From Moniliella sp. 'wahieum' (taxonomy: Eukaryota), in contig RSEE01000011.1 of the NCBI GenBank assembly GCA_003971905.1, positions 62,001 to 126,000 of the forward strand: a stretch of 64,000 nt of DNA. Reading direction: 5' to 3'. Of this stretch, positions 7,271-63,114 are shown in pieces. Position 1 is the first letter of the stretch. Each line of letters begins with the position of its first letter. The notes under the pieces are model-generated. The model had not been told where the DNA came from. It was given only the letters and a program-made list of their open reading frames with translations, and made no database searches. The position numbers and the translations under genes are program-made.

Positions 7271-7741
7271 GCGTACATGCGCAGTGGTGAAGAGGGAAGG
7301 CAGAGCTGGAGGTGGGAGGGCGTGGAGTGGTGTGTTGGTGCGAGGGGGGGGGCAGCATATGACATGGATTGGAGTATGCGACTGCGAGGGATGCCTTGGG
7401 TAGCCCAGTGAGTATACTCTCCGTAGGGTGCGGTGCTATGGCAGAAGGTGTGGGCGTCCACTGCATGATCGATGATCACACCTCGGCTTGTCAGGGCACA
7501 TTTCAGCTCGCTCGCATTTGGGCTTTGCACCCGACTGGGAAAGCAGCGCACAGGGCAGCGCTTGCCCCCTCGGCATTCGCTGGACGTACTATAATAGTGA
7601 GCGCCCAGGCGCTCAGGCCGCCTCACTTGAGGCCTCAGGCTGAGCTGAGCCCTCCGTGGGGTTATCTTGCAGAGTGGCTGTGACTCGGGACTGGGATGGA
7701 ATAGCAGGCTGTAGCGTGCTGTAGCCGGGTGCCCATCCGCT

Positions 7742-7765
7742 TGAAGCTTGAAGCTTGACGCGTGA
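7742..7765. repeat. TNA/4-bp-palindrome run TGA-AGCT-TGA-AGCT-TGA-CGCG-TGA
   Basis: Direct reading; upstream of FAB1. Confidence 0.85.
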
Positions 7766-8186
7766 CGAGCTTGAGTAGCTTCCTGTAACAGGAATCTTTT
7801 CAGCTCTTCAAGCTCTTTAAGCTTCAAGCGGCGCTGCCCGCACAGTCCATCCAAGCGATCCCACCTTGCCGGCTATCGACCAGTGACTTCACTTTCACTA
7901 GTGACCTAGTGACCTAGTAACCGGCCCCCCCTGACTACGGCAGACCCTGCCCGCCGCACCTTATCCATGTCGTCCAGGCCACGCCAGCTTCTCTCGATCA
8001 ATCTATCTATCACACGCCACGCGGCAGCCGCAACGAGTAGCTAGCAACTAGCAACGCGTATAGTAGCGGCTGCAGCGGCTGCAGCATGAAACGGCTCTTG
8101 CGTTTTGAACGGTCCGTTTTGCATTTCCCATTCCAGGCCAAGCACGTGCCATTTGCTAACGGTACTGATACCCCCGCGCCCCACCC

Positions 8187-9213
8187 TCAGGCAAAGTATT
8201 CCGGCAGTAGGAAGCTCAGGTTCTTCTTGGCCTCGGCCGGGATGGCGTGCGGTTTGGTAACAATGGCAAACTTCATGCTGCCCCGCAGCGCCTTGTTGGA
8301 CGCCGACTCGGGATTGGCCGCCTCGGCATGCACCGTGTCCAGCACTCCCAGCACCACTTCTTGCGACGCAACCACATTGTGCTGCAGCACCGCCATCACC
8401 TGCTCCACCGTCACCGCGCCCTCGTGCGCCCGCCACGCATCGTAGTCCGTCGCGGTCGCCACCAACACATAGCCCAACTCGGCCTCGCGTGCCAGCTTGG
8501 CCTCGGGCAGGACGGACATGTTGATAATGTCGCCGCCCAGCTGGCGGTAGACGTTGCTCTCGGCCCGGGTGGAGAAGGCGGGGCCCTCCATGCACACCAC
8601 ACACTTGTCCCCGTGCACCTGCACCTCGGGAGCGGCTTGGCGAGCACCTGGCGCAACTTGTTCTCCACCAGCGGACGCAGATGCTCGTCAAACGGATCGC
8701 CAAACATGGCGTGGGCCACGACCGACGACTCGGCCCCGTCGCCAAAGAACGAGGCACGGCGGACCCCCTTGGTGCGATCGAGGATCTGAGAAGGAACGAT
8801 GAAATCCTTCGGACGCACCTCCTCCCGCAGACTGCCCACGGCCGAGAAGGCGAGGATGGTGCGGACACCGAGGTGCTTGAGGGCGGCAATGTTGGCCAGG
8901 GCTGGCACCTTGCTGGGCGGCACCTCATGGGCTACGCCATGGCGAGCAAGGAATGCAATGTGCACGCCGCTCGGCAGCTTGGCAACCGTAATGGGCGAGC
9001 TGGGCTTGCCCCAGGGCTAGATACGAGGCAGAGATGGTGGTTAGTGCACGATGCTACGCCTGGGGGGGACGGAGGTGAGCCAGGAAGGGCACACACGGTA
9101 TCAGGGTGCACCTGGGTGACAACCTCGACGCCGCGAAGGTGGTAGAGGCCAGAGCCGCCAATGACGCCCACGCGAACGCCGAGCTGCTGCACTTGAGCGA
9201 CGGAGAGGGCCAT
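8187..9213 (-). CDS. MEU1: S-methyl-5'-thioadenosine phosphorylase (MTAP); one intron at 9017-9096
   Basis: VGVIGGSGLY, IAFLARHG, ANIAALKHLGV, MEGPAFSTRAES, INMSVLPEAKLAREAEL, TDYDAW; intron GTGTGT...CTAAC...TAG on the - strand. Confidence 0.93.
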
Positions 9214-59912: not shown

Positions 59913-60948
59913 CCGTCCCTGGTTTCTACCTGCTTCTCACCCATCCATCATATATTATCTCTGCTCACCCGCGACAACATGCAAGGTCGCCTAGCCCGTT
60001 GTGGCTTCCAACGTTTGATACCTCTTCACCTTATTTACACACACACCCCTCCGTCTGGTCGCCGCGTCCGCGTTACGATCGCGCGTGGTGGGCTGCCCCT
60101 CCCCCCCCGCTCGCGTTCTCTCTAACTTCATCATCACTGTTCCCTTAATATTGTTCCCTGAGCCCACTCTTTTCATCATCTGTTCTGCTGGCCAGTGCGG
60201 AAGATCTTCATGGAAGAGAAGTGTCAAGCACTGGCCACAAGCCAGCTCCTCACTATCCATTTTAATCTCCTCCCACTCTCTCACATCCCGTGCATCGATA
60301 TTAACTCCCCTCCACATCTGTTTTTTGCTGTCCTCATGTTGGTATACATCCCTCACTGGCCTTGTTCGGACTCGATTGGCAAAATGGATCCCCCTCACAG
60401 TCACAAGTCGCAATAGTTTTCGGGGGTGAGTGGAGAGGGTATAGCGGCTGGGCTCTCTTTCCAACGACCCCGACATGTGTAACGATTCTTCAAAGTCTAT
60501 TTCCGATCTCTGATCAGGATCTCTCACCCCTCTCGATTCCAGCCCCTTCCAATCTTTTGCGCGGGCCATACCCCTAGGGCTAACAGAGCCAACAAAAAAG
60601 AGTGGGGCAGATGGATGGGGATGTGGGTGTTGAAGCTGATGGTGCGCAGTGTGATGAATCTAAACCTAAGTGAGCGGTTTTATGATGAACACCCTGATAA
60701 TGGAAACACAGGCTGCTGTGGCACACGCATAGTGTGATTTTGAGCCGAGACATCTTCAAAGGCTAGGCACTAAAAGGCGACCAGACCGAGACGTGAATAC
60801 AGCGTGAATATTGAATCCCACAGGGAAGACCCTGTAGCCTCTACAGAAAATTAAAAAGAGGAACTGAACACATTGATCGCAGGGGGGGAAGGGTCTATAT
60901 AAATGACTACTACATACTATAACTGGGCTAGAATATGTGCGTACAAAG

Positions 60949-60981
60949 GTACTCAGTACTCAGTTGAGTACTCAGTACTCA
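60949..60981. repeat. TNA/4-bp-palindrome run GTAC-TCA-GTAC-TCA-GT-TGA-GTAC-TCA-GTAC-TCA
   Basis: Direct reading. Confidence 0.85.
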
Positions 60982-63114
60982 CGGCCCACCAGGGAAGACC
61001 GGACACACAGACTTTTCGGCCGTTGCCGAGAGCGGAGTTCGGACTTTATGTTGCGTTTCGGCAGGCAGGACATGATCATATTGTGGTATGCGTGTAAAGG
61101 GAGGAAAAAGAACGATGACTGTGTGATAGGGGTCACATCGGTCAACACACAGGTCTCCACGACCACATGTATTCTTCTTTGTCGGGCGAGAACCTCTGCG
61201 AGAGCGGACAGTAAAGGTCGGATGAATCACTGAGAGCCGACCTGGCAAACGAAGCGCTCCTTAGTTCTGGCCCGATGAAGGTTTGTAATAATGCGTTTAT
61301 GAATCCGGCAGCCGCCTCACCTATGGCGCTCTCTCTCATATGACCTCACGATCATCACTCCGATTGCGAGATCGCGCACAAAACACGTGCCTTTTTTCAG
61401 CTTTTGTTGGTGACGTGGATGGACGGCCCCTCCCTTCGGAGGCGCGACCCACACACATTTTCTAGGGATGCTTCCTGTTTGGAGAGGAGATACCCACTCA
61501 CATTTTATCCACAGTCTACTATTGATGGATCTCCATAGAGGGCGACAAGTGAGAAGAGGTGAGAGAGGTTCAGTATTCTTGTACTCGGTGCGTCTCGGCC
61601 CGCGAATCAAGTGGTATACTTGTTGGCATACTCGATAGACAATTCTCTCTCAGAATTATGTACACAGAGGAACCCTTTGATGTGAGCAGACTCTGGCTCG
61701 ATCAAGGCAGGGAAGACCAGGCTAGAGGCCCCCAACTTATATTGCATCAAAAGGTATCGGCTGGACTAGTCTCGGGCATTAGCGGATCGTTTAAGAGCAG
61801 GTTCTTATTGAAGCCGGGCTTTTTGGTGGGATGGAAGCTGTGACGAACATGGCGATGAATTGAGCCAGAATGATTAATGACTTCCGATCGATGATCCTCG
61901 CCCTGTGGTTGCGGAACTTCGGGCAAAAAAAGGTACTATATCCGCAATGACAGCAATGGACCGGAGGCTTTGATATTGGTACCGAAGAAGAGGAGGTTTG
62001 GTGTGTCTAACAAACACCTCCTTATCCCCTCTCTGTGCCTTGCGACAGTCGGGTGAACGGGAGTCTGAGGGAGCTGGTGCTGAATGCAGAAATCGAAATG
62101 CGGCCGCCAGCCAAAGCGGAAAAGAGGGACCCAGAAGAAACCGACCGACGCACTTTATTGCCCATCACACCATGATTGGGCGCAGCAGCCCCGTTTTACG
62201 GTTATCATGGCCGGTTTTGAGAGCGACGGGGTGTGTGTCCTCGAGGTATGCTGGGAAAGAGAGCGAAGGGGGCATTATATGCTGAGAAAGAGAGCGAAGG
62301 GGGTATTTTTTTCGTCCCGAGTGCAGTCATATACAGAGCCACAGTGGCACCGGTTCATTTTGGCGTCTTTACTAGCACACATGGCTCTTCGTTCCTGCTG
62401 CTTATAGTATTGGACCACATCGGACGGCCTATCAGTCTCATCGTACCCACCCCCATTCACATATGCTACTTGGGACTACACCTCAATAACCACATTACAC
62501 ACCGCTTGTTCAGTTCGCCTGTTCATTCTCCCCAATCGAGGAAGTGGTAGAAATACAGGGCCATCGCATCGCACCCAACAGCATCCATGCCCAAACGAGC
62601 GGTGATGACACCAGCACAAAGGCTAAGCCGCTCGGGCGTCAGCCTAAGGGGTCGCGCGCGTCGCACCAAGCCAGAGGGGTGCGGGGGTATATGTGGCCGT
62701 GACGACATATACCAGTGTGCGCGACAAGAGAACCACGCGGAGAACCGCAGGCGTGCGGGGATTATGCGAGCGCACAGGCGCCACCAGCCCCCGTGCAACG
62801 ATGATGACCAGGGAGAGCCAAGAGACTATCACACCATCCCATAAAAGGGGGATAGTAGAAACAGCGTGACGGTTGGAAGAAGGTGAAAGAAGGGTTGGAA
62901 CAAACTTGTCGGGAATGGGGTAGGGGGGATGGGGTAAGACGAAAGTGCAAAAACGAGCGAATCGTTCGGTTGCATTACTTTTTGGTTGCTCAGTCGGTCA
63001 CTGCGACCAGGTAGGCTGATATTAGGACCAGAGACAGACAACGGACCGAGGCGAGACGACAGCTTTGAGCTGTTATCATCTTCCTCGTGAATTCGGACGT
63101 GGCGGTCAAAGAAT

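Follow-up and report, generated by a model that had tools for sequence, protein, structure and literature searches.

Palindromic spacers between T-N-A words in the intergenic DNA of a Moniliella contig: possible scars of a templated seven-nucleotide insertion

The 64-kb stretch of Moniliella sp. 'wahieum' DNA analyzed here (hereafter the window: contig RSEE01000011.1 of assembly GCA_003971905.1, positions 62,001 to 126,000 of the forward strand) has a G+C content of about 58% and carries a series of housekeeping genes recognized with Pfam, namely those for a TCP-1 chaperonin, a PIP5K-like kinase, a purine-nucleoside-phosphorylase-like (PNP-like) protein, a MIF4G protein, an Rpb3/AC40-like subunit, cytochrome b2 (CYB2), a glycosyl hydrolase, a TPR protein, a phospholipase C (PLC), an ATP-synthase subunit, Sec61, a protein kinase, a Yippee-type protein and a helicase. 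The CYB2 product shares about 70% identity with proteins of Thecaphora, Sporisorium, Ustilago, Ceraceosorus and Tilletiopsis, its top matches reaching 90% and 82%, and places the source organism in the Ustilaginomycotina (smut-like basidiomycete yeasts). The spacers between these genes contain numerous short elements in which two T-N-A words (TNA, where N is any base) flank a 4-bp palindrome (TNA-pal4-TNA), with a period of 7 nucleotides (nt), and it is these elements that are examined here. Coding and non-coding DNA were told apart by open reading frames (ORFs) of at least 150 amino acids (aa) or by Pfam-supported coding sequence (14,882 bp); a codon-bias gene finder trained on five ORFs covered 17% of the window and was set aside in favor of ORF length and Pfam.

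The excess of palindromic spacers between TNA words is real and very strong. Indeed, 74 of the 176 TNA-N4-TNA words in the window (42%) have a palindromic N4, against a mean of 6.63 and a maximum of 13 in 100 dinucleotide-preserving shuffles, which contain on average 112.9 TNA-N4-TNA words in total. This bears out the enrichment proposed in an earlier sequence-only reading of the same DNA, and the 10-mer is present at all 37 positions which that reading had listed, the one at 52071 being offset by 4 from the match at 52075 within the array 52070-52086. When all 16 anchors of the form a.b are compared, the fraction of palindromic spacers is 0.42 with T.A and 0.039-0.091 with the other 15. Furthermore, among spacer lengths of 0 to 12, clear enrichment is confined to 4 (74 versus a naive expectation of 11) and to 11 (10 versus 0.1), the latter because 11 is 4+3+4, i.e. 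two spacers and one TNA. All 16 tetranucleotide palindromes are in use as spacers: the sequence-only reading rightly saw that many of them are interchangeable, but the four that it had not noticed (AATT, ATAT, TATA and GATC) are each present once. As to 6-base palindromes, those of the form A....T are in excess (278 versus 169) and those starting with C, G or T are not. Some individual hexamers also deviate window-wide, GACGTC (5 versus 16.4 expected, z -2.7), GGGCCC (z -4.0) and CCCGGG (z -2.7) being depleted, and TGGCCA and CGGCCG enriched.

The basic unit of the pattern is a 12-mer, rather than a tandem duplication of 7 bp, and reads TNAxy-y'x'-TNAxy, in other words a 5-nt direct repeat that begins with TNA, recurs at an offset of 7 and encloses a 2-nt gap equal to the reverse complement of xy. 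Counted strand-specifically, 65 such 12-mers occur in the window, versus a mean of 0.22 and a maximum of 2 in 50 shuffles, which is about 300-fold over chance. TNAxy 5-mers are repeated at offset 7 in 81 instances, and the gap is y'x' in 65 of these; at offsets 5, 6, 8, 9, 10, 11 and 12 the repeats number 13, 22, 27, 46, 7, 7 and 25, respectively. The N of adjoining units is identical in 63 of the 74 matches, complementary in 7 and neither in 4, and the units are therefore direct repeats in which the palindrome spans everything but N. The direct, inverted and everted orientations described in the sequence-only reading thus all occur, but very unequally. Where N is the same in both units (63 cases), G or C accounts for 53 and A or T for the other 10.

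An unbiased survey of every period-7 run of identity gives the same picture from the side of length. Arrays with a palindromic lattice measure mostly 12 (25 arrays) or 13 nt (16), with a dip at 14, 15 and 16 nt (4, 1 and 2; 7 in total for 15-18) and a second mode at 19 and 20 nt (4 and 3), 7 nt above the first, followed by single arrays of 21 and 37 nt. Period-7 arrays with a non-palindromic lattice, for their part, drop about 3-fold per added base, which matches chance. Modal lengths of 12-13 nt do not fit a simple 7-bp tandem duplication, since such a duplication would measure at least 14 nt. The edges of the arrays are likewise set on the TNA, which stands exactly at the start (or, on the other strand, at the end) in 11 of 15 12-mers (phase class {0,5}) and in 10 of 16 13-mers (phase class {0,4}). 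In addition, the palindrome of three mixed arrays switches between units through changes at 2-4 symmetric bases, which fits a gap templated anew from the current xy at each event; such a switch is hard to reach by point mutation. Finally, the TNA-N4-TNA spacers with 0, 1 and 2 matched base pairs number 52, 50 and 74. With a chance background of 1.5:1 for 0 versus 1 pairs, this distribution leaves only about 15 excess single-mismatch relics beside the 74 perfect spacers, and so the elements are either young or constantly re-made. Variants of period 8 (the 7-nt unit plus one base) and of period 9 (an extra AC in AACGTT) adjoin canonical arrays at 7898-7922 and 55607-55625 and suggest frequent 1-2-nt indels inside arrays.

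These lengths bear directly on the view that the elements are a special class of microsatellite, whose self-complementary 7-bp units would form hairpins, slip easily and thereby be preferentially born and expanded. Among exact two-copy tandem repeats, 7 is indeed the commonest period (35 versus 3.35 in shuffles), and 20 of the 35 units are fully self-complementary (cyclic-palindromic), 19 of them centered on TNA. Moreover, arrays of at least three units fold into a 5-bp stem with a TNA triloop at -2.8 to -6 kcal/mol, although only one of the four longer arrays that were folded reaches z -2.05, the others lying between -0.64 and -1.52. The elementary units, in contrast, lack fold stability: eight 12- and 13-mers folded with their flanks as single-stranded DNA give 0 to -2.3 kcal/mol (z -1.76 to +0.50), no better than shuffles, so that the greater stability expected of a hairpin or cruciform is not seen in them. 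A propensity to slip also leaves unexplained why the anchor is T.A only and why the effect is restricted to period 7 (palindromic units make up 5/15, 2/32, 0/7 and 1/6 of the repeats at periods 5, 6, 8 and 9), and mixed arrays would demand symmetric double changes. We therefore regard a microsatellite origin as quite unlikely and agree with the sequence-only reading that slippage alone is insufficient.

Microhomology-mediated tandem duplication (MTD) resembles the present system in its (Rg)nR arrays, in the change by whole units and in the depletion from coding DNA. MTD requires a pre-existing R-g-R and does not create it (bioRxiv 10.64898/2026.02.28.708716). Here, birth by duplication of a whole unit or from a chance microhomology pair is at odds with the modes at 12-13, the dip at 14-16 and the excess of the R-g-R 12-mer itself over chance, with its gap being the palindromic completion in most offset-7 repeats. 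On the other hand, the second mode at 19-20 nt is what gain of a whole unit produces. MTD thus explains growth from 12 to 19 nt, not the birth of the R-g-R substrate.

The elements largely avoid coding DNA, as the sequence-only reading had judged by eye. In DNA not covered by ORFs of at least 150 aa there are 2.83 matches per kb, and in such ORFs 0.59 per kb; within the Pfam-supported coding sequence, 1 of the 11 TNA-N4-TNA words is palindromic, and overall coding DNA is poorer in the elements by a factor of about 5-40. The 74 matches form 52 clusters (Table 1). Several clusters are situated upstream of a coding start at a distance of 100-450 nt (CYB2, Sec61, Yippee-type and PIP5K-like genes), and the only clear tail-to-tail spacer (1789-2670) has no match, an absence that is weakly informative at the observed density. 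The earlier statement that clusters are usually found upstream of gene starts, which was checked loosely, holds to this extent. The highest density is reached in an ORF-poor stretch of about 4 kb (54483-58480), which has no ORF of at least 150 codons and a G+C content of about 0.50, versus 0.58-0.66 over most of the window. This stretch, unusual amid gene-dense DNA, gave no Pfam, Rfam or tRNA match, and no Rfam family, tRNA or transposase-like domain was found in the ORF-poor regions of the window.

Concentration in spacers near coding starts, the small number of decayed copies and the empty tail-to-tail spacer are all compatible with functional cis-regulatory or chromatin elements, be they sites of symmetric DNA-binding proteins or the structural promoter code read by symmetry that the sequence-only reading had listed among its candidates. 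Yet all 16 palindromes are in use, and a binding site cannot demand a palindrome without fixing its sequence; an array of transcription-factor sites would show one or a few defined cores. A reader with two-fold symmetry should likewise accept a complementary N as readily as an identical one, against the observed 7 versus 63. The elements have no consistent strand orientation relative to neighboring genes and are densest in the ORF-poor stretch rather than present once per promoter. We consequently consider a regulatory function improbable. The use of 16 cores also upholds the earlier view that a single transcription-factor motif is insufficient, while the structural promoter code is disfavored on account of the 16 palindromes, of the indifference to the orientation of N expected from a symmetric reader and of the lack of fold stability of the units. 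The idea that the elements provide stop codons in three frames was rejected as well, for strand consistency is lacking and the palindrome would be left unexplained.

Table 1. Positions in the window of TNA-anchored elements and arrays
Position	Feature	Detail
7465-7920	Group upstream of the minus-strand PIP5K-like gene	7465-7477, 7628-7637 (inverted type), 7739-7767, 7817-7826, 7895-7904
7739-7767	Mixed array	Two AGCT units, then one CGCG unit
7749-7765	Mixed array, switch of palindrome	AGCT to CGCG
9413-9452	Two elements, GTAC and CGCG spacers	Divergent spacer between PNP-like and MIF4G-like genes
14335-15779	Five elements	14335, 14487, 15190-15209 (three TNA, 20 nt), 15680-15692, 15768-15779
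18238-18256	19-nt array, three TNA, ACGT spacer	Begins exactly at the T of TNA
20650-20663, 20882-20894, 20906-20918	Three elements	Precede the CYB2 coding start by about 170-430 nt
21941	AATT spacer	Missed by the sequence-only reading
22987-23000, 23218-23229, 23622-23635	Three elements in the interval from CYB2 to the following plus-strand gene	23622-23635 is the sole clean 14-mer
25989	GATC spacer	Missed by the sequence-only reading
38177-39220	Three elements, 5' side of the PLC-like gene and divergent spacer	38177, 38708-38720, 39211
41834-41846	13-mer, CCGG spacer	
41935-41953	Period-7 palindromic array centered on GNC, not TNA; the only one	Unit is CACGTG + T
46074-46086	13-mer	Precedes the inferred Sec61 start (minus strand) by about 85 nt
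48137-48148	12-mer	Unit and about 8 nt of right flank same as at 18238; homology ends after about 20 nt
51622-51634, 51681-51693, 51938-51950, 52070-52086	Four elements	Upstream of the minus-strand kinase gene
54867-58536	Richest stretch	35 of the 74 matches
54902-54931, 54979-55004	TGA-anchored array and adjoining TAA-anchored copy	Both with 7-9-7 substructure
55224-55260	Longest array	37 nt
55919-55941, 58520-58536	Mixed arrays in the richest stretch	
55920-55936	Mixed array, switch of palindrome	CCGG to CATG
58520-58536	Mixed array, switch of palindrome	GCGC to TGCA
59948	TATA spacer	Missed by the sequence-only reading
60805	ATAT spacer	Missed by the sequence-only reading
60805-61880	Elements	60805-60816, 60949-60981 (one N inversion), 61869-61880

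Repeats of other kinds are also present in the window. A long GATGGC/GAGGGC hexamer (12-nt) coding repeat lies in the PLC gene (35746-35925, minus strand) and encodes an acidic low-complexity insert, and spacers hold two tandem duplications of 31 nt that are unrelated to each other (58215-58274 and 62247-62307; 1.9-2.0 copies, 86-93% matches).

The feature appears to belong to a particular lineage. Using the CYB2 protein, 23 fungal metagenome contigs (140,504 bp) were recovered at 35-68% identity and served as controls. In these, 42 of 358 TNA-N4-TNA words are palindromic (11.7%), or 23 of 275 once four closely related contigs sharing one conserved promoter are left out. Under the strict 12-mer rule, 4 elements are found in the 140,504 bp of controls versus 65 in the window, i.e. 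0.028 versus 1.02 elements per kb. The feature is thus lineage-specific, and its absence from other fungal contigs speaks further against a regulatory role. In those four contigs, representing an unrelated fungal lineage, conserved TNA-pal4-TNA words do occur about 130-230 nt upstream of the CYB2 homolog (L007 4570-4612, L012 1907-1943, L020 906-948 and L009 627), which could be taken in favor of function; these words are uninformative, however, because the whole promoter is conserved among the four close relatives. The CYB2 search of the metagenome contigs returned only relatives of at most 68% identity, with no alignable orthologous spacers. That the elements might be an artefact of assembly or base calling is scarcely credible: coding DNA is largely free of them, they keep to one exact sequence rule in all 16 variants, mutational decay and mixed arrays are seen, and we know of no sequencing error mode that makes templated 7-nt insertions.

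Transposons were weighed as another source. A TNA center is a common target preference of transposons, and a direct repeat around a short palindromic filler is the classic layout of an excision footprint. A cut-and-paste transposon targeting TNA could leave such footprints either as a 3-bp target site duplication (TSD) plus two bases of each terminal inverted repeat (TIR), or as a 5-bp TSD plus 2 hairpin-derived P-nucleotides in the manner of hAT, Transib, RAG or MULE, and the fixed length of the elements and their non-coding location, near gene starts where this could be judged, agree with both forms. The likeness to the footprints of hAT, Transib/RAG and MULE elements and to V(D)J coding joints is close, as all share a short direct repeat around a 2-nt reverse complement of the flank, a fixed local geometry and tolerance only in non-coding DNA; here, palindromic nucleotides sit beside an intact flank, y'x' directly following xy in 65 of the 81 offset-7 repeats. 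However, hAT, Transib/RAG and MULE elements make TSDs of 8, 5 and 8-10 bp, and their P-nucleotides vary in length and can form at either flank, whereas the present elements keep strictly to a period of 7 and carry the inverted piece always distal to TNA, no mirror form with a TNA-side P-piece occurring among the 16 exceptions to the y'x' gap rule. A 5-bp target with TNA at one end also lacks two-fold symmetry. The hAT, Transib/RAG and MULE families form hairpins on flanking DNA, and end joining leaves the footprints (PMC5499845).

The simple Harbinger form of this explanation, put forward in the sequence-only reading, is not supported. PIF/Harbinger (Tourist) elements do repeat a 3-bp T-N-A word, their TSD being TWA (TAA/TTA), but here N is mostly G or C and not W, and the filler is templated by the flank, given that xy recurs behind the second TNA in the same 65 of 81 instances. 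The model of a 3-bp TSD with TIR tips was rejected. A filler drawn from inverted termini, of the Tc1/mariner type, would be constant per family and bear no relation to the flank; the fillers found here are of 16 kinds, which would require many transposon families, and their first half equals the flank behind the second TNA in those 65 of 81 instances. A 4-bp palindromic TSD with a TNA footprint should give 11-mers that begin with the palindrome, which is the case for only 4 of 16, and a hAT-like 8-bp TSD was rejected because the polarity of its consensus (nTnnnnAn) is opposite to A-N4-T. No element combining TIR and TSD was found in the 64-kb window, including any of the hAT, Transib/RAG or MULE kind, and no transposase domain, the DDE_Tnp_4 type of PIF/Harbinger included, was found in the 150 + 62 + 98 ORFs scanned from it. 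According to PMC4561436, Mariner/Stowaway excision leaves a small duplication together with element-end bases, while Harbinger-type elements usually excise precisely, which is a further difference from the elements described here. Altogether, an origin as transposon footprints is unlikely.

We lean, at slightly less than even confidence, toward another interpretation, namely that the elements are scars of an ongoing, lineage-specific templated insertion of 7 nt anchored at TNA and later expanded by slippage, rather than a code of binding sites. A site TNAxy would receive exactly 7 nt and become TNAxy-y'x'-TNAxy: synthesis would copy TNAxy, turn round for two bases (y'x', akin to P-nucleotides) and copy again from T, the setting being replication, or the repair of DNA nicked or broken at TNA. 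The insertion product being palindromic everywhere but at N, the spacer would therefore always be a 4-mer palindrome, and any of the 16. Each event would yield a new TNAxy target, allowing iteration and hence clusters; if xy mutated between events, a new palindrome would be computed and mixed arrays would result. Arrays may then gain or lose whole 7-nt units by ordinary slippage or MTD, and as an insertion of 7 nt shifts the reading frame, its products would be purged from coding DNA, the elements being otherwise presumably neutral to selection. Of the candidates put forward in the sequence-only reading, a TNA-anchored fold-back or template-switch process comes closest to the evidence, but the segment would be mostly a direct 5-nt re-copy, with only 2 nt inverted and N copied rather than complemented.

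Several points weigh against templated insertion at TNA. A fixed 5+2 product with a T-N-A anchor is not known from any enzyme or repair pathway. Spacers of 2, 6 and 8 are without clear enrichment, though template switching or repair of the polymerase-theta type would vary the lengths, and P-nucleotides occur solely at the TNA-distal end of the 5-mer, where transposon-style hairpin models predict either end. The 13-mers (R=6) exceed the chance extension of 12-mers, with at least 3 extra bases in 12 of 23 versus about 6-7 expected. Moreover, the flanks are biased: in 26 arrays oriented to start with TNA, G precedes in 14 and C follows in 15. Neutrality is an assumption, yet the elements sit near gene starts, and the direction of change proposed here is read from the structure of the elements.

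A more specific version, possible if doubtful, is that a dedicated, sequence-anchored DNA transaction is at work, in which a nickase, a deaminase-initiated repair or a domesticated transposase would act at T-C/G-A in open chromatin and repair would write the fixed 7 nt. In the richest stretch, the TGA-anchored array and its TAA-anchored copy (compared over 54896-54940 and 54975-55016) differ at 5 of 27 aligned columns, 4 of which are N positions with G in one array against A in the other. The patch anchored by TAA/TTA spans 54979-55215, and its neighbors are anchored by TGA/TCA. These G/A differences point to N-specific hypermutation or concerted copying, and they hint that N itself is the lesion site, which is the best lead to a lesion that would start the process.

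Among other known systems, short template-switch mutations come near to what is proposed, as a single event joins an inverted copy to a direct re-copy. Under the four-point model (PMC5453318), such events can also give rise to palindromes or make existing ones perfect. Template switches have variable lengths and no sequence anchor; the product described here differs in being a fixed 5+2 tied to TNA. Our search of the literature found no description of such elements in fungi, consistent with the statement of the sequence-only reading that no named feature matches. Heptamer repeats are reportedly present in Xanthomonas and Nostoc; those are prokaryotic, with one unit sequence per family and arrays that are often long, whereas the elements of this eukaryote follow one rule with 16 cores and mostly comprise two units. 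The finding is akin to templated insertions, excision footprints and short tandem repeats, with a real possibility that a new process, driven by an enzyme, lies behind it.

If the pattern holds genome-wide, it would constitute a mutational signature of single-base precision, defined by its anchor (TNA), its length (7) and its template rule, at about one element per kb of the window. It would expose a nick, break or repair activity not previously known in a basidiomycete and provide a natural system for studying the birth, beyond the mere expansion, of palindromes and tandem repeats. Such a process would furthermore be a steady supply of promoter variation and, should a dedicated transaction be responsible, a self-propagating signature that continuously remodels promoters. 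Lastly, it carries a warning for motif discovery, as palindromic words in these promoters, including those resembling the MluI-box and the T-box, among others, can be repair scars and not factor sites.

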